From positions 224,001 to 288,000 of the forward strand of contig CAVSCK010000005.1 in the NCBI GenBank assembly GCA_963726455.1: a DNA stretch of 64,000 bases. The letters run 5' to 3'. The notes under the pieces were generated by a model. It did no database searches, was not told where the DNA came from, and saw only the letters and a list, made by a program, of their open reading frames with translations. Source of the DNA: an uncultured bacterium (GTDB taxonomy: Bacteria; Zixibacteria; MSB-5A5; CAIYYT01). Below, in pieces: positions 28,749-43,740 of this stretch. A program made the translations under genes and the position numbers. Positions within the stretch are counted from its first letter, which is position 1. Every line of letters begins with the position of its first letter.

Positions 28749-30218
28749 TCACTTCTTGGCGGAAGGATCCTTGAGGTCTTCCTCGATTCCGGCCAACCGT
28801 TTGGCGACGGCGACGGATTTTTCCATTTCGGACGACAACCGGATAAACATCTTGGCGCCATCCGGTGAACCACCGCCATGCATGCAGCCGGGCACGCCGG
28901 CGCCCATCGTCGTCCATTCAACCAATCGCGCAGCACGAGCGCGCGTCTCGGCGGAGGCCGCGGCCTTCATGTATTTCCTGATCAGGTGACCGTAGGTCTC
29001 GTCGTTGAAGTCAACGTAAGACGGCATACAGCCGGTCTCGGCTATTCCACCGGCAATATCCTGCGCGATAATCGAGGTTTCATAAGGTAGCTTGGCCACA
29101 TGCACCTTGTTCACATTCGATAGCAGCATGTCGGGCATCCAGACTCCGGACGGATGTTTCTTGCCCAGCGCCGCCGCGGCAATGCCAACACCATAAGTGG
29201 TTTCATTGTTGACGACCATTTGGGTCAGGCGGTCGGCGAACACCTTCGATGACAGTCCGTTGGCACGCGCGGTCAGAACGGCGGCGCCAAGTTTAATGTC
29301 ACCCTGTCCGGCCACGCAACCGCCGATGGCGGCGCGATACGGCAGAATGAAATTGACAACGGCCTCGCCCGTGAACGCAAATTCACCCGCCATAAATACT
29401 CTCTCATTTGGAATAAAGACGTTCTCGAAGAACAGATATGCCTGTGTGATGCCACCGCTCTTGACGGGAACGTCGAACGATTCCGGAGCTTCTTCCTCGC
29501 GGGTATCGTTCGGGTGGCGGGCCTCGACGATTGTCAGGCCGTCGATGTCACGCGGGATCACGCACGAGACAGACCAGTCGGTATCCTCTTCCTTGTAGCT
29601 GCTGCCCGGCAGAATGAATATCTCATTGGCGGCGGCAATACCGCAAATCATCACTTTGGCGCCTCGCACGACTATACCATCCATGCGGCTCTCGACAATG
29701 CGCAGATTCATGTCGGGATCATCCTGCTGCGACGGTTTGCGCATACGGTCGCCTTTGGGATCGGTCAGCGCACCGGCAATAGTGATGTCGCGTTCCTGCG
29801 CAGATATAAGCCACTTCTTCATGCGGTCATGGTAACTCGTTCCCAGTTTTTGATCCATGTCATAGGTTGTCGCCCAGAGTGAATTGATCGCCGCCCAACC
29901 CGCGCAACGACCGCCGGTGCAGGTGCCGCTCCGATGGAACATCATTCGCTTCATTTTCGAGTTGGCAATCTGTTCTTCCAGAGAAGTGATAATCGACAGA
30001 TAACGGGAAATCGGCTCACCGGTCAGATGAGACTTGGTCGTCACCATGTCCTTCACTTCGGGGTCGTGCTGGGCGCTGTAGATTTGCGCATGCCCCTCGA
30101 CTGTCCAGCGCGTCGCCGGATGTGTGGTAACATCGGCAATCAGTTTACCGAACTTGTGGATGTTAGGGCGCATTGCGCGCAGACTCTGTTTGTATTCATC
30201 AGCGGTCTTTAGTGACAT
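28749..30218 (-). CDS. 4-hydroxybutyryl-CoA dehydratase (AbfD)/HpaB-family Fe-S flavoprotein with a divergent active site
   Basis: ALTDPKGDR, DPD..LRIVE...GIVVRGAK, FENVFIP.ERVF, DIAGG and MHGGGSP motifs; three cluster Cys present. Confidence 0.85.
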   Translation of the reverse strand: MSLKTADEYKQSLRAMRPNIHKFGKLIADVTTHPATRWTVEGHAQIYSAQHDPEVKDMVTTKSHLTGEPISRYLSIITSLEEQIANSKMKRMMFHRSGTCTGGRCAGWAAINSLWATTYDMDQKLGTSYHDRMKKWLISAQERDITIAGALTDPKGDRMRKPSQQDDPDMNLRIVESRMDGIVVRGAKVMICGIAAANEIFILPGSSYKEEDTDWSVSCVIPRDIDGLTIVEARHPNDTREEEAPESFDVPVKSGGITQAYLFFENVFIPNERVFMAGEFAFTGEAVVNFILPYRAAIGGCVAGQGDIKLGAAVLTARANGLSSKVFADRLTQMVVNNETTYGVGIAAAALGKKHPSGVWMPDMLLSNVNKVHVAKLPYETSIIAQDIAGGIAETGCMPSYVDFNDETYGHLIRKYMKAAASAETRARAARLVEWTTMGAGVPGCMHGGGSPDGAKMFIRLSSEMEKSVAVAKRLAGIEEDLKDPSAKK

Positions 30219-30392: not shown

Positions 30393-30410
30393 TTGTGACA
30401 TCCGTCACAA
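30393..30410. promoter_or_regulatory. Palindromic operator TTGTGAC-N4-GTCACAA (Rex/CRP-type spacing) at the predicted glnA transcription start
   Basis: Perfect 7-bp arms, immediately after a TTGCCA-N17-TACCTT promoter (30363-30391). Confidence 0.65.
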
Positions 30411-30437: not shown

Positions 30438-31850
30438 ATGAAGTTGGAACAAATTCAAAAGCTGGCAAAAGATAAAGGGGTTGAGTTCCTCGACCTGAAG
30501 TTTTGCGATCTGGTCGGGTCATGGCACCACGTGACCTTGCCGATTGATTCGCTGGAACCGAAGTTGTTTGAATCGGGCGTGGGCGTTGACGGCTCGTCAC
30601 TTTCGGGGTTTGCCTCGATCAAGCGCGGAGACATGATCATGATTCCGGATGCCACGACCGCGTTTATCGATCCGTTCTTTGAACGTCCGACGATTTCACT
30701 GCTTGGCAATATCATGGATGTCGACGAAATCGCCGAGCCATTCACTCGCGATCCACGGAGGGTTGCTGCGGCGGCTGAAAGCTTTGTCGGCAAGAACGTC
30801 AAGGGTTCGGTGCCAATTTTCGGGCCGGAGTTCGAGTTCTATCTGTTCGACCGCGTTGTTTACGACCAGCAGCCACAGAGTTCATATTACCAGATCGTCT
30901 CCGAAGAAGGCGGCTGGGTCGAGCCGGGCGAGGCCGACCAACTGGGTTACAAGATCGGCCATAAGCGGGGCTATCACGCGGCGCCACCGTACGACCGCAC
31001 CTATAATCTCCGCAATCAGATCGCGTCAATGTTGGCTGAAGCCGGCGTGGCGGTGAAATATCATCATCACGAGGTCGGAGGCGCCGGGCAGTATGAGTTC
31101 GAGGTTCGGTTTGCACCGCTTCTGAAAATGGCCGACCAGAGCATGCTGGTGAAATATATTGTCAAGAACGCCTGCTTCCGTGACGGGAAGACCGTGACGT
31201 TCATGCCCAAACCGCTGTATAACGAACCGGGTTCCGGCTTGCACGTGCATCACTATCTGACTTCCGCGACCGGCTCGCTGTTTTACGAAAAGAACGGTGC
31301 GCATCGTTTCTCGAAAGAAGGCCTGTATTACATGGGCGGACTGCTCAAGCACGTCGATTCGATTCTGGCATTCACCAATCCATCGTCGAATTCTTACAAG
31401 CGGCTGGTGCCCGGATTTGAGGCGCCGGTAGCAGGTACATTCTCGGTCGGCAACCGCACTGCCTGTATTCGGATACCGGGATATCAGCGCGACCCGAAAA
31501 CCATGCGTTTTGAATTCAGGCCTCCGGATGCCACAATGAATCCGTACCTGGCATTCGCGGCAATTGTCATGGCGGGAGTTGACGGCATCAAGCACAAGAT
31601 CGACCCCGGACCGGCGCTTGACAAGAATCTGGATCAGCTTTCAGAATCCGAGCTGGCAAAGCTGCACCAACTTCCGACATCTTTGGATGCCGCACTGAAT
31701 GGGCTCGAGAAAGACAACAAATACCTGCTGGAATCGGGTGTATTTACAGAAGACTTGCTCGAAAACTGGCTGATTCAGAAGCGCCGCGAGCTTGATACAC
31801 TCCGCCGCCAGCCGACTCCCGGCGAGTACGAGTTGTACTACGGCTGCTAG
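30438..31850 (+). CDS. glnA: Glutamine synthetase type I (GSI-beta-like)
   Basis: DGSS, GPEFEF, HHHEV, TFMPKP, GSGLHVH, SYKRLVPGFEAP, NRTACIRIP, EFRPPD; carries the beta-type insertion. Confidence 0.96.
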   Translation: MKLEQIQKLAKDKGVEFLDLKFCDLVGSWHHVTLPIDSLEPKLFESGVGVDGSSLSGFASIKRGDMIMIPDATTAFIDPFFERPTISLLGNIMDVDEIAEPFTRDPRRVAAAAESFVGKNVKGSVPIFGPEFEFYLFDRVVYDQQPQSSYYQIVSEEGGWVEPGEADQLGYKIGHKRGYHAAPPYDRTYNLRNQIASMLAEAGVAVKYHHHEVGGAGQYEFEVRFAPLLKMADQSMLVKYIVKNACFRDGKTVTFMPKPLYNEPGSGLHVHHYLTSATGSLFYEKNGAHRFSKEGLYYMGGLLKHVDSILAFTNPSSNSYKRLVPGFEAPVAGTFSVGNRTACIRIPGYQRDPKTMRFEFRPPDATMNPYLAFAAIVMAGVDGIKHKIDPGPALDKNLDQLSESELAKLHQLPTSLDAALNGLEKDNKYLLESGVFTEDLLENWLIQKRRELDTLRRQPTPGEYELYYGC

Positions 31851-32984: not shown

Positions 32985-34430
32985 TTGTCCGCCTCGTCCA
33001 AGCGCAACATCCTCTTTGCCTGCGCCGCACTGGTAATTCTGTTCGCTTTGGTTGAACTGACTCTGCGGTTGGTCGTCCAAGTGTCCGTGGATTATCTGTC
33101 GCAAAATGATGATGTCAATTACGAGTATAAGCTCTGGCAGATGCACCTCTTTGACTCGGCGATGGAGATGCAGGAATTTGACCCGGACCTGTTCTGGAAA
33201 ATGAAACCGGGGTACCGGTCGCCATTTGTCTATATCAATAGCGACGGATTTTCGGGACCCGAAATCCGTGAGCGTCAACCCAACGAATTTCGCGTTCTGT
33301 TTCTTGGCGACTCAACACCACTGGGCGTCGGCTTGCCGAAATCGACCGGCTCGTTTGTGTGGCAAACGCGCGCGTTGCTCCAGGATGCCATGCCGGATCG
33401 GGCCGTGGTTGTGATCAACGGATCCGCCGCGGGATACACGAGTTGGCAGTGCCGCAAACTGCTGGAGTTGAAAGGCGATGAATTGAACCCGGATCTCGTG
33501 ATAACCTACTTCGGAAATAACGATGCATCCTACAATGGATATCTTTCTGACCGCGAGCTCTACAATCTGACTCGCCGCTACGGCGCGGTCAACCGCCTGC
33601 TGGCGAAAAGCTACACTTATCAGTTGATCAAGAGCATCGCTTTGAAGGTCAAGTCGGGCGTTCCGGCGGACGCAAAGCTCAAGGAAAGAGTCTCCGTGAG
33701 CGAATTTGGAGATAATCTACAGGCAATCAGGAATTGGTGCGAAAACCACCAATGTAAACTGGCAGTGTGTTCAATACCGACTCCTGATCTCTGGCCGCCC
33801 GGTATTCAATTCAAGGTTTTCACCGGCGGCAAGGATGCTTCCGGCAGACTCGTGATGGCCGAAAGCATGCAGAAGGACCTGGCGGAGTCGTGGAACTTGT
33901 GCCTCGACACTCTCCTGCTTCCGGGAGTGACGGACGTGTGGTCGAGTCTCGTCTACAAGTCGGGTAATGGCGATACAAAGTCGCCCGAACAACTGGAGAA
34001 ATCCTGTCGAGAGCAATTGAGGTCAACTCCCAATGATCCTCGGCTACTGAACAATCTCGGAGTTGCCCTTTGGCGCCAGGGACGGGACTCGCTGTCCTAT
34101 TTTCGACAAGCGCTCGAGATTGACAGTCTGAACCCGGCGCCCTGGTACAACCTTGGGATCGAAGAATATCATTCTGACTCGCAGCAAGCTGTCAGGTGCC
34201 TGGAGCAGGCAAAGGAACTGGATCGATACTCGTTACGCACCAAAGCGGCTTACAATCAGAAACTGCGGGACTTCTGCACTTCCCGTGAGGTCACCTTTAT
34301 CGACCTTGTGAAAGATTTCGCAGGTTTACCGGAGACGGAATACTTCGTAGACCATTGTCATCCGACAGCCAAAGGTCACGCATTGATAGCTCGCGAAATT
34401 GCCGAGGCAGTAACCGGCACGGCGCGCTAA
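32985..34430 (+). CDS. Membrane-anchored SGNH/GDSL hydrolase with inserted TPR repeats
   Basis: N-terminal TM; LGDST, G.ND and DHCHP blocks; NNLGVALW / WYNLG TPR segment. Confidence 0.8.
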   Translation: MSASSKRNILFACAALVILFALVELTLRLVVQVSVDYLSQNDDVNYEYKLWQMHLFDSAMEMQEFDPDLFWKMKPGYRSPFVYINSDGFSGPEIRERQPNEFRVLFLGDSTPLGVGLPKSTGSFVWQTRALLQDAMPDRAVVVINGSAAGYTSWQCRKLLELKGDELNPDLVITYFGNNDASYNGYLSDRELYNLTRRYGAVNRLLAKSYTYQLIKSIALKVKSGVPADAKLKERVSVSEFGDNLQAIRNWCENHQCKLAVCSIPTPDLWPPGIQFKVFTGGKDASGRLVMAESMQKDLAESWNLCLDTLLLPGVTDVWSSLVYKSGNGDTKSPEQLEKSCREQLRSTPNDPRLLNNLGVALWRQGRDSLSYFRQALEIDSLNPAPWYNLGIEEYHSDSQQAVRCLEQAKELDRYSLRTKAAYNQKLRDFCTSREVTFIDLVKDFAGLPETEYFVDHCHPTAKGHALIAREIAEAVTGTAR

Positions 34431-34699: not shown

Positions 34700-35830
34700 A
34701 TGAGAAGGATTTGCCTGCTACTGTTGTCTGTGGCCGCTTTTCTCTTTGTTACGAATCCGTTGTCAGCAGCCGAAACCAAGTTTAGTGGCGTGATTTTCGG
34801 CAACTGGACACTGCATCTTAATGACCAGGGGCTGTCGAAGAATTACAATTACTTCGATATCACACGCGCCCGTCTGATCGTCGATCATCAGTTTAGTGAC
34901 AAGTATTCCGCCAATATGATGCTTGACCTGGTCCCGCGCGACACGGCAGATCCCAGCGCCGATCGATTCGGCCTGTCATATCGTTTACGTTCCGCCTACA
35001 TCCAGGGCGACAAGCTCGTCCGCTATACCACGTTCCGCCTTGGTCTGCAGGGAATTATGTGGTTTGACAAGCTGGAGAATTTCTGGGGCCTGCGCTATAT
35101 CGATAAAGTATCTTTGGACAAGTTTGGTTACCTCGACCGCGCCGACTTCGGCGTTAGCGCCATTATGGATTGCCCGGGCAACTATGGTACCGTAGCACTT
35201 CAGATCTTCAACGGTTCCGGCTATGCCGGTCGCGAGGCAAATCGGAACAAGGATTTTGTCGGCTTCGCGTCGTTCAACCCCATGCCCAAGAATCCTGACT
35301 TCGGCGAATCCAGTGTTTGGTTCCAGTATTACAAGGGCTGGCCGAACATTGCAAACACTGCCCCTGCCGGTGAAAGCTTCCATTCCATTACCAAGAGAGA
35401 CCGTTTGCAGCTAGCGGGCGCCTTCAAGTACCGTAAGTGGGCGACCGCAGTAGCGGAATACTTCCATACGTCGGATGACAATATTCCGACTAATCTTCCG
35501 GGTAACCTAGACGTGCAGAAAGCCAAGGGCGTGTCGCTGCTGGGCAAGCTGAATGTTGCCACTGCGGAGTCCTGGCTTGCCAGAGTCTATATTTTCGCCA
35601 AGTATGATTGGATCGATAAGAACTTGCAGCTTGACAAGTCGCTTGAGCCGTTTGCCTCGCAGGCGGGCGACGCGCGCGGCATTATCGGCGGTGTCGGTTA
35701 CGAGCCGGTCGACGGTTTGAATATCGCCTTGTCAATTTCGCGTTTGACCACCAAGTTGAACGATCGGAACATAGCCGTCGTGGAAGACGAAAGAAACTCG
35801 TTCGTCTTCAATTTCAGCGCAGCTTTCTAG
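34700..35830 (+). CDS. Outer-membrane beta-barrel protein (putative porin)
   Basis: AAGGAG RBS; signal peptide; FDITRARL motif; amphipathic strands; terminal Phe. Confidence 0.75.
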   Translation: MRRICLLLLSVAAFLFVTNPLSAAETKFSGVIFGNWTLHLNDQGLSKNYNYFDITRARLIVDHQFSDKYSANMMLDLVPRDTADPSADRFGLSYRLRSAYIQGDKLVRYTTFRLGLQGIMWFDKLENFWGLRYIDKVSLDKFGYLDRADFGVSAIMDCPGNYGTVALQIFNGSGYAGREANRNKDFVGFASFNPMPKNPDFGESSVWFQYYKGWPNIANTAPAGESFHSITKRDRLQLAGAFKYRKWATAVAEYFHTSDDNIPTNLPGNLDVQKAKGVSLLGKLNVATAESWLARVYIFAKYDWIDKNLQLDKSLEPFASQAGDARGIIGGVGYEPVDGLNIALSISRLTTKLNDRNIAVVEDERNSFVFNFSAAF

Positions 35831-36845: not shown

Positions 36846-37502
36846 TCAAGTTTTTTTGCGATCGGTCCGGCGGGGCAAATTGTTAACCAGCGAAAATGAC
36901 AGGTACTCCAGTTCCATCGCCATATTCTCGGTGCGAATAAACACATCGTCCGGAACTTTCAACTTGATGGGTGCAAAGTTGAGAATGGCTTTGATCCCGC
37001 AATGCACGACATGGTCTACGATTGCCTGCGCCGATGACGCCGGCACGGCCAATATGACCATCTCGATCTTATTCTCGTTTAGTTGCCGCTCAAGGTCGTC
37101 CATACCCAACACGGTGATGCCCTTGTGATTGGAGCCGATCTTGCGCTGGTCATTGTCGAACAGAATCTTGATATTGAACCCCTGCCGGGAGAATTCCTTG
37201 TAGGATACGAGTGCCGAACCGATATTTCCCACGCCTACCAAGGCTACGCTCCAGGTGCGGTCGATCCCGACGATGCGGGCGATCTTTTCTTTCAATTCCC
37301 TGACCGGATAACCCAGACCACGTGTGCCGAAAGAGCCAAAGAACGACAGATCTTTGCGAACTTGAGCCGGAGTCAGCTTTTCGCGGCGCGCCAATTCCTT
37401 GGAGGAGATGGTGTCGAAGTGTTCACGCTCCAACTGGGTCAGGGCACGGTAATAGTGAGAAAGTCGCTGAATTGTTGACTCAGATATTTTGCGTTCTTTC
37501 AT
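36846..37502 (-). CDS. rex: Redox-sensing transcriptional repressor Rex
   Basis: TIQRLSHY.R.L, QVRKDLSFFGSFGTRGLGY, VGVGNIGSAL, AILNFAP. Confidence 0.97.
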   Translation of the reverse strand: MKERKISESTIQRLSHYYRALTQLEREHFDTISSKELARREKLTPAQVRKDLSFFGSFGTRGLGYPVRELKEKIARIVGIDRTWSVALVGVGNIGSALVSYKEFSRQGFNIKILFDNDQRKIGSNHKGITVLGMDDLERQLNENKIEMVILAVPASSAQAIVDHVVHCGIKAILNFAPIKLKVPDDVFIRTENMAMELEYLSFSLVNNLPRRTDRKKT

Positions 37503-37541
37503 TTACTTCCTCGCATCAGTTTTCGCCGCTAAAGTGGTCTG

Positions 37542-37559
37542 TTGTGAATCCTTTCACAA
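37542..37559. promoter_or_regulatory. Rex operator (autoregulatory)
   Basis: TTGTGAATCCTTTCACAA matches TTGTGAA-N4-TTCACAA perfectly; 40 nt upstream of rex and just downstream of a minus-strand TTGACA (37581-37586). Confidence 0.9.
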
Positions 37560-37681
37560 CAAATAGGACATTTTCACTTCTGTCAAGCCCTATTTTGTTT
37601 GTACGGCTTAACATGCCCTCTATTAGAGAGATTTTTCACAATGCGCAAGACACCCCTGACTGTCAAAGTCGGTGTCAGAGC

Positions 37682-38578
37682 TCAGGGTTTGGCGTGGTGT
37701 CTTTCCGGTGAATGTCCCAGTTCGGTCATGCGCACCAACCATTTCCACTGTGACTCAACATGACTCTGGATTCGACGTATAGTCGTGCTGCTGAGCGAGG
37801 AGAATCGTCCCTGGCGCAAGATGAATTTCGTGACTGGGGTAAAGGTTTCCGGAGTGATGTTGATCGTATATTTCGAGCCGTTTTCGATCTCGTAGAGCGG
37901 GAAGATTCGGCTCTGGACAGCGGCCCGCGTAATTTCCACGGAAAGCTCCGAGGGCATTTCCCAGTGAGTCGGACAGGGCGAAAGGAGCTGCAGGAATCTG
38001 AAGCCGGTGTAAGACAACGCCTTCTTTACTTTGACAGAAAGATCATCGGGATAGGCAACACAAGCGGTGGCGCAATAAGGGATGTAGTGGGCCGCCATGA
38101 TCTGCATGATGTTCTTCTGCGGATGGTAGTTTTGGCGTTGAGGCGCAGGTGTGTTATCTGACAAGTCTGCGGACAGAAAATCGATCTTGGCATAAGGTTC
38201 GTTGTTGTAGCAGACATAGAGAATGTCATCGTTGCGCTCGGCGACCGATGATACGGCGTGAATTCCTGAGTCAAAGGCGCCGGTACCACCCGCCCAGGCC
38301 AGCACACGGACATTGTGTCTTCCTTTGGCCTCAAGGGCGGCACGAATTCCGGCGGCTGCCGCAGCCGTAGTTTCCATCGCAACGTGCAGAATCGGAATTT
38401 TGACTGCCGAATGCGGCCATTGGCCGTCCACGTAGGAGGCACAACACGACGGCACCACCATAATGGTATTCTCGCCGATCGCCTCTAAGACCAGGCGCAG
38501 GCCTAGTGCCTCGCCGCAACCCGGGCAGCCAAGATGGCCGGACTCCATCGGACACTGCGATTCATCGACGCGAGTCAC
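37682..38578 (-). CDS. 2-oxoacid:ferredoxin oxidoreductase beta-like subunit (PorB family) with degenerate TPP motif
   Basis: GHLGCPGCG, LSPCPTHW; GDG is replaced by GTG and NEAYMNTG by NEPYAKID. Confidence 0.85.
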   Translation of the reverse strand: MTRVDESQCPMESGHLGCPGCGEALGLRLVLEAIGENTIMVVPSCCASYVDGQWPHSAVKIPILHVAMETTAAAAAGIRAALEAKGRHNVRVLAWAGGTGAFDSGIHAVSSVAERNDDILYVCYNNEPYAKIDFLSADLSDNTPAPQRQNYHPQKNIMQIMAAHYIPYCATACVAYPDDLSVKVKKALSYTGFRFLQLLSPCPTHWEMPSELSVEITRAAVQSRIFPLYEIENGSKYTINITPETFTPVTKFILRQGRFSSLSSTTIRRIQSHVESQWKWLVRMTELGHSPERHHAKP

Positions 38579-39756
38579 AACCGCACTCCCTCCCAGTATT
38601 GAGTTCCCGGCACATGTTTGCCGTCCGGGTATTTCAACGCGATTTCCCTTATCATCGCCGGCGTAATATCACGTCCACCCAGGCCGAGAGTGATATCGTA
38701 GAGACGAGTTACAGCGGCGGACGAATACAACGCGGCCTTCGTTTCCTGTCCGAGAATTCCACCGGCGCCGAAACTGATATTACGGTCCAGCACAATATAA
38801 CAGCAGGCGGGATTCAGCAATTGTAGCAACTGTTCGACCGGAAACGGGCGAAACATCCGCAGGCGAATCAAACCGACTTTGTGCCCTTCACTCCGCATCT
38901 CTCTCACGGTATGCCTGACAGTTTCCGCCATCGTCGCGTAAGTGATGAACACGACCTCGGCATCGGCAACTTCGTAAGTTTCCAGGCAGGAATACTTGCG
39001 GCCAAAGATTGCGGCAAACTGGCGAAATGTCTCGCCGGCAACCCTCTTGGTTTCGTCCATCGCTTGTTGAATCTTGTACCGGAATTCCAGATAGTAGTCG
39101 GGCGAGGTCAAATTGCCGATTGATCGCGGCCGCTTGGGATCGAGTTGCCACTCGGTTTCAAACGGCGGCAGGAAACTGTCCACTTGATTCGGTTCCGGCA
39201 GCATTACGGGCTCAATAGTCCGCGAAAGGTAGAAACCATCGAGGTTAACCAGTACCGGCAATTGCACAAGTTCGCCGAGCTTGTATGCAATGAGAATCAT
39301 GTCGTGCGCTTCCTGGCTGGTTGACGCGTAAAACTGAATCCAGCCGGTATCGCGCTGGGAAAAACTGTCGTTGTGATCGACCCAGATCGACCAGGGCGCT
39401 CCGAGCGCGCGGTTGACATTGGCAACCACAATAGGAAAACGGTCACCGGCAGCCCAGTGAAGCATTTCGTGCATCAGCGCCAGTCCCTGTGATGACGTCG
39501 CGGTGAAGGTACGGGCGCCTGTGGCAGACGCGCCAATCAGCGTCGACAAGGCGGAATGAGCGGCCTCGACCTTAACCATACGCGCGCGCAAGGAACCGTC
39601 GGCGCTGAAGTCGCAGAGGTGATCCATGATAGTCGAGGGCGGGACGGTCGGATAGACGACAACGACATCGGGTTGGGCGGCTTTGACTGCGTGCGCCACC
39701 GCCTGCGAACCTGAGAGCAAAGCGCCCTGCCCGGATATAGTTACTCTCGGCCTCAA
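38575..39756 (-). CDS. 2-oxoacid:ferredoxin oxidoreductase alpha-like subunit (PorA family) with degenerate catalytic motifs
   Basis: TATSSQGL.LMHE, NRALGAP, QRDTGWIQ, DGF.LS, FRPFP, GLGGRD; YPITP is replaced by YPTVP and ESEH by EAAH. Confidence 0.85.
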   Translation of the reverse strand: MRPRVTISGQGALLSGSQAVAHAVKAAQPDVVVVYPTVPPSTIMDHLCDFSADGSLRARMVKVEAAHSALSTLIGASATGARTFTATSSQGLALMHEMLHWAAGDRFPIVVANVNRALGAPWSIWVDHNDSFSQRDTGWIQFYASTSQEAHDMILIAYKLGELVQLPVLVNLDGFYLSRTIEPVMLPEPNQVDSFLPPFETEWQLDPKRPRSIGNLTSPDYYLEFRYKIQQAMDETKRVAGETFRQFAAIFGRKYSCLETYEVADAEVVFITYATMAETVRHTVREMRSEGHKVGLIRLRMFRPFPVEQLLQLLNPACCYIVLDRNISFGAGGILGQETKAALYSSAAVTRLYDITLGLGGRDITPAMIREIALKYPDGKHVPGTQYWEGVRL

Positions 39757-41432
39757 CGTGGCACCTGTCGCAGTCTAAGGTGAATGGCGTCGCGCGGACA
39801 TTCATGGATACAGATTCCGCAACCTTTGCAGTAATCGTAATCAATCGCGTACTCGTCGTTCGTACGGCTCACGGCATGTTCGGGACAGAACGTCAGGCAA
39901 TTGTCGCAGTGATCGCAGACACCGCAGGAGAAACAGCGCGCCGCTTCGCGCATCACTTCCGGTTCCGAAAGTCCGAGGTGAATCTCGGCGAAAGTGGTCG
40001 TCCGACGGTTGACAGGAATACGCTTCCACTCCACGACCTGCGATCTCGGGAAGTACGCAATATTGATGTCGGACGGCCGCGTCACAATCTGCGGCTTCGC
40101 TTCGACGAAGATATTCATGCCGCGCAGGTATCTATCAATGGCATTTGCAGCGGACATGCCTGAACCGATCGCACTGCCCACGCCCTTGTGTCCATCGGAG
40201 CAGTCACCGGCAGCAAAGATGTTCTTAATGCTGGTCTGATGTGTACCGCCGGTGTTGAGGCCCCAGCTTTGACACTCGATGTCCTTGGGCAAAAAAGATA
40301 AATCGGGATCTTCGCCGAGCGCGACCAGAACAAGGGACACGTTCTGTTCGAATTGAGAGCCGTGGATTGAGACTGTGACGCGCTGGCCAGAAGAATCTTT
40401 CTTGCCGAACATCAGTCGCTGCAAAGTAATTTGCAGATTATCGCCTGCTTTGCGGATCACAACCGGCGCTGTGAGCAAGTGGATTTCAATGTCTTCCTGG
40501 CGTGCCTCTTCTATCAGGTCTGCGAAAGCCGGCATCTCGGCAAGCGAACGGCGGAAATAGACAACCGGCTTGCCGCCCAGTCGTAGTACTGTGCGCGCGC
40601 AGGTAATAGCTGTGTTGTTGCCGCCGACAATTGCGACCTCGCCGGGGACATGATCCCGATGCCCCTTGCTGACATCCGATAGGAAGGTTAGTCCTTGTTG
40701 TACCTGCGGAAGCTCTGCTCCGGGGATTTCCAGGTCGCGTGGTTTGTCGGCGCCCGTGGTAATCAATATGGCACGAAATCGCGAGAGGTCTTCGAGCAGC
40801 ATATCCGTGCCGATCTTTGTCCCGACACAAACTTCAATTCCTCGGTCGATGAGGGAATGGATTTCGGCATCGAGAATTTTGCGAGGTAGTGTGTATTCTG
40901 CGATTCCGGCGCGCATCATTCCGCCCAGTTTGGTCTGCGACTCGAACAGCGTAACACGATAACCCAGATTTGTCAGACGCCACGCCGCCGAGAGCCCAGC
41001 CGGCCCGCCACCCACGACTGCCACTTCGCCGAGCTGAGGATCAAATTCTGCCGGCTGGGTCTTGACATTCTTCAATCCCCAGTCGCCGATGAAGCGTTCA
41101 AGACAACGGATCGAGATAGCGTCATCCAGCTCGCGGCGGTTGCAGTTGGCTTCACAGGGGTGATTGCAGACTCGGCCGCAGATCGCCGGAAGTGGATTAG
41201 TCTGGCGGATCGCGTCGTACGCCTCGCGGAACTTCTTGTCGTCTATGAGCGAAATGAACCTCTGAACATCCCCCCCTGCCGAACAGGCATGGTTACAGGG
41301 CGACAAGTGGTCTTCATGTATCGGATCAAAATAGCGCCAATGTCCGGTCAGATTCCATCCCATCCAACCCTGACTTATTGGCAGAGGCGGCATGACTTTC
41401 GCGGAGGTCAATGTATTCTTCTTGCCACTCAT
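39753..41432 (-). CDS. GltD/NfnB-like Fe-S flavoprotein fused to a PorD-like 2x[4Fe-4S] domain
   Basis: SPCNHAC, CGRVCNHPCE..CNR, GGGPAGLSAA, IFAAGD, EAARCFSCG.C..CDNC...CP, YCKGCGIC..ECP. Confidence 0.88.
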   Translation of the reverse strand: MSGKKNTLTSAKVMPPLPISQGWMGWNLTGHWRYFDPIHEDHLSPCNHACSAGGDVQRFISLIDDKKFREAYDAIRQTNPLPAICGRVCNHPCEANCNRRELDDAISIRCLERFIGDWGLKNVKTQPAEFDPQLGEVAVVGGGPAGLSAAWRLTNLGYRVTLFESQTKLGGMMRAGIAEYTLPRKILDAEIHSLIDRGIEVCVGTKIGTDMLLEDLSRFRAILITTGADKPRDLEIPGAELPQVQQGLTFLSDVSKGHRDHVPGEVAIVGGNNTAITCARTVLRLGGKPVVYFRRSLAEMPAFADLIEEARQEDIEIHLLTAPVVIRKAGDNLQITLQRLMFGKKDSSGQRVTVSIHGSQFEQNVSLVLVALGEDPDLSFLPKDIECQSWGLNTGGTHQTSIKNIFAAGDCSDGHKGVGSAIGSGMSAANAIDRYLRGMNIFVEAKPQIVTRPSDINIAYFPRSQVVEWKRIPVNRRTTTFAEIHLGLSEPEVMREAARCFSCGVCDHCDNCLTFCPEHAVSRTNDEYAIDYDYCKGCGICIHECPRDAIHLRLRQVPR

Positions 41433-41986
41433 TTTGCGCTCCAGATGGCGTGCTCGTAGGCATCGCGAATTGCCGATTGGACCTCCGGAATTTTGTCGGT
41501 TGCATATTCGCCTGCCGACTGTTGGATCTGTGCCAGCGACACTTGATCGAACGCCCTGGCCAACGCCCCAAGTATCGCGAAATTGACATGCGGCAGCAGT
41601 CGTGTACCGAGCCGATGATTAAATGCAATCTGGGCAGCATCGACTGCGGCGATCCTGAAGCTTTCGCGGTACTCGGCCAGAACGGTTTGAGAACCGGTAT
41701 TGACTACCAGCAACCCGTCAGGCGCCAATCTTGAAGTTGCATCTGCGGCTGACAACACGGCGGGATCGAGAAGTATAATGATGTCGGCCTGGTCGATTTC
41801 ACACCTCAACCAGACTTCCTGATTGTCGTAGCGAACAAAGGCCTCTGCAGGAGCACCCTTTTTTTCAGGCCGGAATGCAGGAAAAGCTTGAACGTATCTG
41901 CCGTTCTTCCAGAGTGCATGTGCCAGTGTTGCGGCAGAAGCCAGAACCCCTTGTCCTCCTCGACCACAGAAAATCACTTGCCTCAT
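41429..41986 (-). CDS. 2-oxoacid:acceptor oxidoreductase gamma subunit (PorC family)
   Basis: GRGGQG, QAFP.F.PE..GAP, VVNT, N..ILGA. Confidence 0.88.
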   Translation of the reverse strand: MRQVIFCGRGGQGVLASAATLAHALWKNGRYVQAFPAFRPEKKGAPAEAFVRYDNQEVWLRCEIDQADIIILLDPAVLSAADATSRLAPDGLLVVNTGSQTVLAEYRESFRIAAVDAAQIAFNHRLGTRLLPHVNFAILGALARAFDQVSLAQIQQSAGEYATDKIPEVQSAIRDAYEHAIWSAK

Positions 41987-42026
41987 GACGCCTCTCTCTC
42001 AATGTGGCAGCAGGCAATGCCGTTAA

Positions 42027-42077
42027 AGTATAGCGTTGCATCAAAACCTGTCAAGCCAAATGTGAAAAAAATCACAA
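42027..42077 (-). promoter_or_regulatory. Promoter of the por-like operon (TTGACA-N16-TATACT) with adjacent Rex-type box ATGTGAA-AAAA-ATCACAA (42060-42077)
   Basis: Box has two mismatches to the Rex consensus and sits between back-to-back -35 elements (42049-42054 minus; 42087-42092 plus). Confidence 0.72.
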
Positions 42078-42145
42078 ACTCATAACTTGACATCGGCCGA
42101 AAATGACGTTATGCTGAGTTGATTAGTATGCATTCAGGAGGAAAG

Positions 42146-42970
42146 ATGAAACGATTCTTCTACTTAGGGATAATTCTTCTGGGAATAACGGCAATCGCCG
42201 GGTGCTCCAGGAAAGAGGGACAGCAAAGCTCAGCTCAGCTCAAGCCAACGGACCCGACGACAGGTATTCGCGAGGCCGACTTCGTATGGGGCAAGGAAGT
42301 AATTGGAAATGTCACGCTATTCTATCAGCCAACCGATTCGCTGAAACGTATCGCTCCGGCGATGAAAGACCGGGTCTCGAAGGTGTATCAGAGGATCAGC
42401 GATTACCTTCGATATGCGCAGCCGGAGCCGATCGAATTTTATTGCTACCAGGACACGGCCGCATTGATGAAGTACACCGGTAGAGACACGACTTTCTTCC
42501 TGGGGAATCGTTTCTATTACGGCTACGGCCCGTCGTATGGGCGGGAAATGGCAGAGTTCGTCGTCAGTAAGTTGCCGGGCGGACCATCGAGGTTTGCCTT
42601 CGTTCGTGATGGAATCTTATTTCTGCTCGATTTTTCGGGGCGCAATTATCATCACGCTACTAACAACTTCCTGCAGGAAAAGACTCTGTTACCGGCACAG
42701 GTCCTGGTGGACGATGAGCGATACAACAAAGAACAGGGCCTGCAAAAGTCGGTCGAGGCGGCGTCTCTGTGTGCTTACATAATGTATGATTACGGGTATG
42801 ACAAGTTCATGGAAGTATATCACAGCAAGGACGACTTCCCCACCACGTTGAAGAACGTGTTGGGAATTGATATGAACAAGCTGGAGAAAGACTGGGAAGC
42901 GTTTTTGCCGGAACACACGAATGAAAAAGAGATGGAGCGCGAAAAAGCGGCTGCCGAAGGACGTTCGTGA
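42146..42970 (+). CDS. Lipoprotein with peptidase MA-like fold, zinc motif degenerate
   Basis: AGGAGG RBS; lipobox IAG|C; REMAE where HExxH is expected; C-terminal YG.DKF...LG.DM..LEKDW pattern. Confidence 0.65.
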   Translation: MKRFFYLGIILLGITAIAGCSRKEGQQSSAQLKPTDPTTGIREADFVWGKEVIGNVTLFYQPTDSLKRIAPAMKDRVSKVYQRISDYLRYAQPEPIEFYCYQDTAALMKYTGRDTTFFLGNRFYYGYGPSYGREMAEFVVSKLPGGPSRFAFVRDGILFLLDFSGRNYHHATNNFLQEKTLLPAQVLVDDERYNKEQGLQKSVEAASLCAYIMYDYGYDKFMEVYHSKDDFPTTLKNVLGIDMNKLEKDWEAFLPEHTNEKEMEREKAAAEGRS

Positions 42971-43740
42971 CCGAAGACACTGCGTGGCAAAGCGCGATTA
43001 GCGAGGTTGCCAGAAACGTCATTCGCGTACGCGGCTATGATGTCGCCGAACTGATGGAGAAGATCAGTTTCAGCGATACAATCTATCTCTTGCTCAAAGG
43101 CGATCTACCGGACAAGAATTCTTCCGAGTTGTTCCGCGCGATTCTCGTATCGTGCATCGACCACGGCGTTACACCCTTGTCGGTGCTGGCAACACGCACG
43201 GTGATGTCAGCGGGCAATCCGCTGAACGCGGCGGTGGCGGCCGGAGTTCTGGCGATTGGCGATGTGCACGGCGGGGCGATCGAAGCGGCAGCGAAGATCC
43301 TGCAGGAAGTCGCGGGTCAGAAAGGTGAGCCGCAGACACTGGCAGAAGACCTGGTAAAGAATCTTCATGACCAGAAGCGCAAGCTGCCGGGGTTCGGGCA
43401 CCAATTGCATACGGTTGATCCGCGCACGGTAACACTGTTTGAGATGGCGAAGCGGCTGGGGTTCAATGGCAAACATACGGTGCTGATACTGGAAATTGAG
43501 AAGGCGATTCACAAAGTCACGGGAAAGCAATTGCCGATTAATATTGACGGCGCGATTGCCGCGGTGACGTCGGATATGGGATTTGATTGGCGCCTGGGAA
43601 AAGCATTCTTTATTCTCTCACGCATGGCCGGCCTGGTTGCCCACGCTTACGAGGAGCAAGCCACACAGAAACCATTGCGTAAATTGGGCGACACAAATTC
43701 AGTATACACCGGCCCGGGACACAGGACGATCAAACCTTGA
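42967..43740 (+). CDS. Citryl-CoA lyase-like protein (short citrate synthase family)
   Basis: RGYD, DHG, HGGA, PGFGH, DPR, NIDGA, R.AGLVAH; only 257 aa. Confidence 0.85.
   Translation: MTEDTAWQSAISEVARNVIRVRGYDVAELMEKISFSDTIYLLLKGDLPDKNSSELFRAILVSCIDHGVTPLSVLATRTVMSAGNPLNAAVAAGVLAIGDVHGGAIEAAAKILQEVAGQKGEPQTLAEDLVKNLHDQKRKLPGFGHQLHTVDPRTVTLFEMAKRLGFNGKHTVLILEIEKAIHKVTGKQLPINIDGAIAAVTSDMGFDWRLGKAFFILSRMAGLVAHAYEEQATQKPLRKLGDTNSVYTGPGHRTIKP

Follow-up and report, generated by a model that had tools for sequence, protein, structure and literature searches.

Does an operon that keeps the architecture of a 2-oxoacid:ferredoxin oxidoreductase (OFOR), but has replaced key residues of its thiamine pyrophosphate (TPP) site, still encode such an enzyme? 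OFORs are TPP radical enzymes and, to our knowledge, every characterised OFOR uses TPP. The question is raised by a stretch of 64,000 nucleotides (nt) from an uncultured bacterium of the Zixibacteria (GenBank assembly GCA_963726455.1, contig CAVSCK010000005.1, positions 224,001 to 288,000), hereafter called the window. Five consecutive genes on its minus strand (36846-41986) encode, in this order, the gamma subunit, a flavoprotein fused to the delta subunit, the alpha subunit, the beta subunit, and the redox-sensing repressor Rex (Table 1). We conclude that TPP-dependent decarboxylation has most likely been lost in this complex. Judging from the sequences, we lean towards the view that what remains is a TPP-independent flavin and iron-sulphur (Fe-S) redox module, produced at high NADH/NAD+ and without 2-oxoacid decarboxylase activity. 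The operon would then probably serve a redox role different from the oxidation of 2-oxoacids.

We identified equivalent residues using HMMER alignments to solved OFORs (9bt4, 5c4i, and 1b0p, and also 7plm in the case of alpha). The segment AWAGGTGAFDSG of beta aligns with G(G)DGS/GDGGA of 9bt4_C and 5c4i_C and has GGT for GDG, i.e., the Asp is replaced by Gly98. The segment YNNEPYAKIDF aligns with DNEAYMNTGIQ and DNESYANTGIQ, and the NTG active-site loop is replaced. In alpha, YPTVPPS aligns with YPITPQT, and VEAAHS aligns with VESEFS (9bt4), GEGEH (5c4i), and QSEAG (1b0p, 7plm), the second Glu being replaced by Ala66. A preliminary description of this locus had reported an altered GDG...N motif in beta and altered YPITP/ESEH motifs in alpha, which these alignments confirm. 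The replaced positions presumably correspond to the Glu that activates TPP, a Thr that binds the substrate, the Asp of the Mg/diphosphate site, and the Asn of the active site; in the numbering of the pyruvate:ferredoxin oxidoreductase (PFOR) of D. africanus, we take the key OFOR residues to be Glu64, Thr31, Arg114, Asp963, and Asn996. The TPP-activating Glu acts on N1' of the pyrimidine. All cysteines of the proximal [4Fe-4S] cluster of beta (C18, C21, C45/46, and C202) are kept.

The rest of the complex has the components of a four-subunit POR/VOR enzyme. We assigned domains using Pfam and NCBIfam profiles. The gamma subunit matched the profile of POR domain III (PF01558, 1.5e-23), the domain of the CoA site, and passed the cut-off of TIGR02175 (129.3 bits vs 81.1), whereas the flavoprotein of 559 amino acids (aa) fell short of that of NF009410 (492.2 bits vs 516). 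The latter protein has a Fer4_20 domain (PF14691, 4.7e-22), a Pyr_redox_2 FAD/NAD(P) oxidoreductase domain, and a C-terminal PorD-like dicluster domain (TIGR02179 on residues 505-553, 60.2 vs a cut-off of 60.05). Alpha has the POR_N (PF01855, 7.3e-65) and PFOR_II (PF17147, 1.5e-27) domains, beta has the TPP_enzyme_C domain (PF02775, 43.7 bits vs a cut-off of 21.9), and the product of rex is matched by NF003995 (266.4 bits vs 126). All scores for the PorA, PorB, VorB, and Pad equivalog models were under the cut-off, e.g., 255.3 vs 405 for PorB and 452.6 vs 550 for PorA. Hence, the alpha domains, the beta fold and cysteines, and the gamma and delta domains of these enzymes are all present, and what is missing is the GDG...N motif of beta and the TPP-activating Glu of alpha. 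The preliminary description had the four reading frames as intact, overlapping by 4 nt, and lying upstream of rex, as we found from the reading frames and from the junctions (ATGA, TTGA, and GTGA). The stored gene call for alpha is shorter than our reading (374 aa, P0270, 95% coverage). We favour the TTG start at position 39756 because there are homologues of 393 aa, because one relative (locus L017) has an ATG at the same place, and because this start gives the 4-nt overlap.

The fold of beta is retained in a structural model obtained with AlphaFold2 from an alignment of 122 rows (a model from the 14 rows of the clade described below was discarded, its mean predicted local distance difference test score, pLDDT, being 43.8). 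The mean pLDDT is 87.7, and values below 50 are restricted to residues 1-3, 128-131, and 135-146. The best structural match of this model is 9bt4_C (E 4.1e-27, TM 0.81/0.83).

The substitutions are shared by a clade. The closest orthologues do not keep GDG and ESEH, and carry the same replacements as the window. Among the 120 best homologues of beta, 21 including the window have the variant motifs (GG[ST] in 20, GAN in P0021), with Asn at residue 125 in 20/21 and Asp at residue 133 in 18/21. Another 98 are canonical (GDGG and DNEAYMNTG.Q, the NTG loop being invariant in all 98), and the remaining one (P0052) is a separate degenerate sequence. The alpha Glu is replaced in 18 of 120 rows (by Ala in 16, Ser in one, and Pro in one), which are all 18 full members of the clade, and these variants mostly have Val, Met, or Ile for the Thr of YPITP; 101 of the other rows have YPI[TS]P/ESEH and one is partial. 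The matching clade of flavoproteins comprises 11 of 120 rows. In a tree of beta built with 70 of the 120 rows, the variants form one side of a branch with a support of 98 in the Shimodaira-Hasegawa-like approximate likelihood ratio test (21 rows). When the motif columns were removed there was still a single change of state, with a support of 99 (20 rows), or 78 when P0024 is included.

We found the variant in six independent loci: the window, L016 (a Zixiibacteriota metagenome-assembled genome), L017, L076, L077, and L078. L016 and L017, from genome records, have every change in all subunits, and the other 57 genome-record loci with a readable beta motif are all canonical. The last three loci came from a motif-directed DNA scan of metagenome contigs that returned four stretches; the fourth (L079) was set aside for its lack of OFOR genes. 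In a search of 285 genomes of the phylum, the full-length variant was present in two other genomes of the genus of the window (G001 and G003, apparently identical with the records L016 and L017), and a third had only a C-terminal piece. None of the 13 genomes of the sister genus had a match. The next relative (G017, the same locus as L018/L131) is canonical, has 54-56% identity, and belongs to the same bacterial family. The holders of the variant are a small group of uncultured sediment bacteria, one genus of Zixibacteriota and its metagenomic kin.

In the wider PorB family, 123 of 150 representatives have GDG, seven have a variant triplet with Asp, and 14 are unaligned at this position. Only six lack a GDG-type triplet: the representative of this clade, which has one 90%-identity cluster of 25 members, and those of five clusters of one to three members. 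P0052, P0132, P0142, P0171, P0223, and P0230 are PorB-like sequences without the triplet, in clusters of one to three and on long branches. They may have decayed independently, or represent other, rare lineages without TPP.

The variant replaced the canonical enzyme in place. The divergent genes upstream of the variant operons of the window, L017, and L076 encode a 283-aa protein, a 257-aa protein with a citrate synthase C-terminal domain, and an fn3 protein. The canonical operon of G017 is flanked by the same three genes and that of G199, also canonical, by the first two. Since these neighbours are shared, the variant is a positional orthologue of the canonical enzyme, and the TPP site was lost without gene duplication. 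The preliminary description had suggested that the complex might be the regulatory partner of an active paralogue. This idea has to be abandoned: the search of its own genome gave a single match and no second PorB-type beta, the other OFORs of the genome belong to other subtypes, and PorB-type betas occur in one copy per genome across the genus. Outside the window, the gene of the one-subunit nifJ-type PFOR of the same genome (G000:C4:1057446-1060993) is broken up by TGA, TAG, and TAA stops into eight or more pieces in different frames, owing either to pseudogenisation or to a local fault of the assembly. Of 20 other genomes examined in the family, 18 have a match above the model cut-off and free of internal stops, and many of these copies are full length.

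All four operon genes are under purifying selection. We computed dN/dS (omega) with the Nei-Gojobori method on unsaturated pairs among L016, L017, L076, and L078, and compared it with canonical medians over 27-39 pairs of Desulfobacterales of similar dS; the values are approximate, and few full operons of the clade were available. Pairs involving the window were left out because their dS is saturated (pS 0.68-0.83). Omega was 0.11-0.25 in alpha (six variant pairs; canonical median 0.100), 0.14-0.22 in beta (six pairs; 0.064, i.e., a relaxation of about 2.4-fold), 0.14 in the flavoprotein (one pair; 0.21), 0.21 in gamma (one pair; 0.105), and 0.07-0.11 in the rex of the variant loci (six pairs). 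The dN/dS well below 1 that had been named as a check on the idea was therefore observed, with operon values of 0.11-0.25. Pairs with the flavoprotein of L016 (omega 0.42) were excluded because the reading frame of this gene (L016:1-1340) is shifted by a deletion that lies after the AAGDCA motif and before the delta domain. A nearly identical protein (P0394) is full length, with 559 aa, and the deletion is probably an assembly or strain defect.

The electron-transfer chain was spared. The Fe-S cysteine motifs were said to be retained, and we confirmed this in the flavoprotein, delta, and beta. The clade keeps two clusters at the N-terminus of the flavoprotein, two in delta, and one in beta, together with the FAD-binding GxGxxG and the AAGDC motif; both the window and 10 clade members retain the N-terminal cysteine motifs and the GxGxxG of the flavoprotein, apart from a Cys-to-Gly change in P0394. 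With substitutions that define one clade, six independent loci that all have rex directly downstream, a low omega, and an intact set of Fe-S cysteines and FAD motif, errors or decay can practically be discounted as the source of the changes in the TPP site.

To identify where the clade departs from its relatives, we took the columns at least 95% conserved in canonical sequences. In alpha, 97 of 110 such columns are kept and four are switched (T38, T41, E66, and M70). In beta, 62 of 94 are kept and 28 are switched; the switches cluster at residues 98-109 and 125-154, and include G205H beside the last cluster cysteine. In the flavoprotein, 98 of 111 are kept and eight are switched, all within residues 180-353: G272, D277, Y293, M300, E306, R350, and P353 in the NAD(P)H domain, plus Y180F. 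The changes in this domain are consistent across the clade, with Y293F in 11/11, E306Q in 10/11, and loss of D277 in 11/11. The pattern is one of surgical removal of TPP-specific residues, while the NAD(P)H domain was remodelled in a consistent manner and the electron chain, the flavin, the fold, the subunit interfaces, the operon structure, and the regulation were maintained under selection over a long evolutionary time.

Two further motifs had been presented as altered, and here the evidence is mixed. The second Rossmann motif of the flavoprotein does read GGNNTAIT for GGGNTAMD in the window, and the Asp of GGGNTAxD is lost in all 11 flavoproteins of the clade, whereas GGGN[TA]A[IMVL]D is found in 103 of 109 canonical rows. 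However, the third position of the motif varies within the clade (Asn in seven, Ser in two, Gly in two), so the motif does not show that NAD(P)H is no longer bound. The gamma motif FRPEKKG is also present. The clade has F[RQ]PEK[KR]G for FGxERRG, keeps GRGGQG, and shows changes at G39, R42, and a few other positions (three variant rows; canonical rows mostly from Desulfobacterota). Yet this change is conservative rather than an erasure, since the basic pair and GAP are kept.

The operon is predicted to be under Rex control. Its claimed near-consensus promoter matches 11 of 12 positions (Table 1). We searched for operators with the pattern TTGTGAA-N4-TTCACAA, the consensus given in PMC2883068. 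The Rex-type box proposed earlier was recovered with a 4-nt spacer and two mismatches; a 6-nt spacer gave only two weak matches, at chance level, and the 4-nt spacer is the correct one. At up to three mismatches the window has seven boxes vs 2.69 expected, a number reached in 2 of 100 shuffles. L017, L076, and the canonical G017 also have the box upstream of gamma, and a box with zero or one mismatch precedes rex in L016, L017, L076, L077, and L078. At up to two mismatches, no box was found upstream of gamma in 13 other Zixibacteriota loci, nor any in seven other canonical loci (six from Desulfobacterota/Acidobacteriota and one from Methylomirabilis). The operon thus has a conserved operator in its promoter region, as a member of the Rex regulon should, at the level of predicted sites. 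Because the canonical operon of G017 has the same box, Rex control predates the loss of the TPP site. The box of the window lies between two divergent promoters and could act on both.

These observations suggest a scenario in which the ancestor was a Rex-controlled, NAD(P)H-linked OFOR of four subunits whose TPP site was dismantled. The operon would be expressed once Rex is released at high NADH/NAD+, electrons would pass between the flavin and the clusters of delta and beta, with ferredoxin or another one-electron carrier as partner, and alpha and gamma, which are well conserved, would provide a scaffold or bind a ligand. Several observations fit this redox module poorly. The Asn of the Mg motif of beta is kept (N126), as is the basic pair of the gamma motif. 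Glyoxylate carboligase is a TPP enzyme that works without the activating Glu. The glycine variability of the NAD(P)H motif leaves the partner of the flavin ambiguous. The constraint on alpha is close to canonical (omega around 0.15 vs 0.10), and the Arg of its NVNRA motif, aligned to the Arg that binds the substrate carboxylate, is kept in 18 of 19 variant rows. The conservation of alpha including this Arg argues against a mere passive scaffold, and a pure electron wire leaves it unexplained. Finally, the residues newly acquired by beta are themselves conserved (S99 in 19/21, S104 in 18/21, N125 in 20/21, D133 in 18/21, H135 in 18/21, and H205 in 17/21), which could indicate a remodelled rather than an empty pocket.

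The strong conservation of alpha is what keeps alive two other readings, of which the stronger, although we regard it as rather unlikely, is a neo-functionalised enzyme. The pocket that once held TPP, close to the proximal [4Fe-4S] cluster, would have been remodelled to take another cofactor, a metal, or a substrate that exchanges electrons directly with the Fe-S chain, with alpha still binding a carboxylate. The conserved new residues of beta, the substrate-aligned Arg of alpha, and the consistent changes of the NAD(P)H domain would all be explained. But none of the new residues is invariant across the deeper clade: departures occur in P0019, P0021, and P0024, and also in the window, as L135, K131, and N150. 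The loop that follows the NNE of beta varies in sequence and in length within the clade, and its residues 128-146 are modelled with low confidence, which looks more like relaxed constraint. We considered in particular a new His/Asp metal site, but gave it less weight because its residues vary within the clade and two are absent from the window.

That the complex is still a TPP-dependent 2-oxoacid oxidoreductase, with an unorthodox way of binding or activating the cofactor, seems less likely again. Such an enzyme would be in keeping with the retained fold, with the conserved Asn of the Mg motif, Arg of the substrate site, and basic pair of gamma, and with the purifying selection; the Pfam TPP_enzyme_C profile still scores beta at twice its cut-off, and glyoxylate carboligase provides a precedent as regards the Glu. 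However, here the activating Glu, the GDG Asp, and the NTG loop were lost together, the triplet is missing in just six of the 150 wider PorB representatives, and all equivalog models score below their cut-offs.

The second reading left alive by the conservation of alpha, a ligand-sensing pseudoenzyme, we hold to be improbable. It would bind a 2-oxoacid, CoA, or a pyridine nucleotide without turnover, and would gate electrons or signal the redox state, possibly together with Rex. It accounts for the ligand-site residues conserved in alpha and gamma in the absence of the catalytic ones, and for the position of rex, which lies directly downstream of beta in 6/6 variant loci and near none of the canonical operons (0/58 other genome_contigs loci and 0/14 further loci of the phylum with the downstream flank covered). 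Nothing points to a contact with Rex, however. The Rex boxes already present in the canonical sister operon show that the regulation needs no new partner, and the adjacency of rex, the sole copy found in the genome, may be a simple rearrangement.

A slowly decaying relic or a sequencing or assembly artefact is very improbable: the looser constraint on beta (omega around 0.15 vs a canonical median of 0.064) and the deletion in the flavoprotein gene of L016 would fit, but six assemblies independent of one another and over 20 proteins from metagenomes share these substitutions, the four reading frames are intact at 64-70% identity, with dS to the window saturated and omega of 0.11-0.25, the 4-nt overlaps, the promoter, and the Rex box are conserved, and the near-identical copy P0394 of the L016 flavoprotein is full length.

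The closest characterised enzyme is the four-subunit PFOR of Methanosarcina acetivorans (9BT4), which has the same domains and is the best sequence match of beta (E 3.1e-46); the E-value for alpha is 6.4e-93. POR/VOR enzymes of this type keep the activating Glu, the GDG Asp, and the NTG loop, whereas the window operon lacks all three, and in contrast to them its delta is fused to a GltD-like flavoprotein. The gene order is porC-porD-porA-porB in four-subunit enzymes, as described in PMC13768988, and is the same here.

The window operon is identical in architecture to canonical gamma/GltD-delta/alpha/beta operons (NF009410) of Zixibacteriota, Desulfobacterota, Acidobacteriota, and others. All four genes of this architecture are found in 43 of 60 genome_contigs loci (42 canonical, with L017 as the variant), six others end before gamma and 11 end elsewhere or differ; all four are also found, canonical, in 13 of 14 further Zixibacteriota loci. 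These operons keep GDGG, DNEAYMNTG[IVM]Q, YPITPQ, VESEHS, and FGxERRG, as well as GGGN[TV]AxD wherever aligned, and unlike the variant they are not directly followed by rex. They look like a widespread and uncharacterised family of NAD(P)H-linked OFORs, and we know of no characterised member. A term search of the November 2026 review on PFOR (PMC13768988) gave no hit for GltD, glutamate synthase, or flavoprotein.

Other systems share parts of this design. The phenylglyoxylate:NAD+ oxidoreductase PadEFGHI of Azoarcus/Thauera (reference cited in PMC5109826) associates an OFOR with a flavoprotein and passes electrons to a pyridine nucleotide. It is a working TPP enzyme and, by model scores, of a different family: the window proteins are far below the Pad models (PadE 90.3 vs 300, PadG 281 vs 700, PadI 172.1 vs 700). 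The oxalate oxidoreductase of Moorella thermoacetica (5C4I), the second-best match of beta in sequence and structure, has an OFOR scaffold without requirement for CoA and is thus a precedent for plasticity, but it keeps TPP, GDG, and the Glu (GEGEH vs VEAAH in the window). The flavoprotein shares the two-cluster N-terminus, the FAD Rossmann motif, and the fold of NfnB/GltD flavoproteins (9N5U, 4YLF, 5JCA, 6S6S; E 2.6e-81 to 7.5e-49), and differs from them by GGNNTAIT for GGGNTAMD and by replacement of a conserved Asp, Glu, and Tyr in its NAD(P)H domain. We found no TPP-less OFOR in the literature searched, of which subscription journals were largely not a part. It is conceivable, if doubtful, that this is the first thiamine-independent member of the family, with the scaffold, five Fe-S clusters, and the flavin kept and the pocket emptied or rebuilt. 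It would then be a new Fe-S/flavin enzyme, or a ligand-gated module for electron transfer or redox sensing that is tied to Rex, with alpha and gamma binding a 2-oxoacid or CoA.

Table 1. The OFOR-like operon of the window, with its promoters and Rex boxes (positions in the window).
Feature	Position	Strand	Details
Gamma subunit (OFOR domain III)	41429-41986	-	185 aa; FRPEKKG at 41855-41875
GltD/NfnB-like Fe-S flavoprotein fused to delta (2x[4Fe-4S])	39753-41432	-	559 aa; GGNNTAIT at 40602-40625
Alpha subunit (domains I+II)	38575-39756	-	393 aa, TTG start; YPTVPPS at 39634-39654; EAAH at 39556-39567
Beta subunit (domain VI)	37682-38578	-	298 aa, GTG start; AWAGGTGAFDSG at 38264-38299; YNNEPYAKIDF at 38177-38209
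rex, redox-sensing repressor	36846-37502	-	218 aa; gap of 179 nt after beta
Sigma-70-like operon promoter, TTGACA-16-TATACT	42027-42054	-	11/12 consensus matches
Rex-type box, TTGTGATTTTTTTCACAT on the minus strand	42060-42077	.	2 mismatches; directly upstream of the operon promoter
Rex box upstream of rex (candidate autoregulation site)	37542-37559	.	perfect match; operator pattern scan
Divergent promoter-like site, TTGACA-17-TATGCT, facing the 283-aa gene	42087-42115	+	10/12 consensus matches

The window has other features of potential relevance to this locus. Two more Rex-like boxes, each with two mismatches, lie at 30393-30410, between a gene of the HpaB/4-hydroxybutyryl-CoA-dehydratase family (28749-30218, minus strand) and a glutamine synthetase gene (30438-31850), and at 34306-34323, upstream of a porin-like gene (34700-35830). 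The 257-aa protein encoded at 42967-43740 on the plus strand consists of the citrate synthase C-terminal domain only (PF00285, 1.5e-44). Such a protein adjoins variant and canonical operons in five loci, and is possibly citryl-CoA-lyase-like.

The public names of the variant genes are "thiamine pyrophosphate-dependent enzyme" or "pyruvate/2-oxoacid:ferredoxin oxidoreductase beta subunit". With such names, metabolic reconstructions would wrongly credit these Zixibacteriota with a pyruvate/2-oxoacid oxidoreductase. The parent family of canonical operons with a GltD-delta fusion is itself widespread and apparently undescribed in the literature searched. The substitutions form a natural and well-defined set for which the canonical positional orthologue can serve as control, and they offer a way to dissect the contribution of each part of an OFOR. 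The maintenance of the OFOR scaffold would mean that it can be selected for a function distinct from the chemistry of 2-oxoacids.

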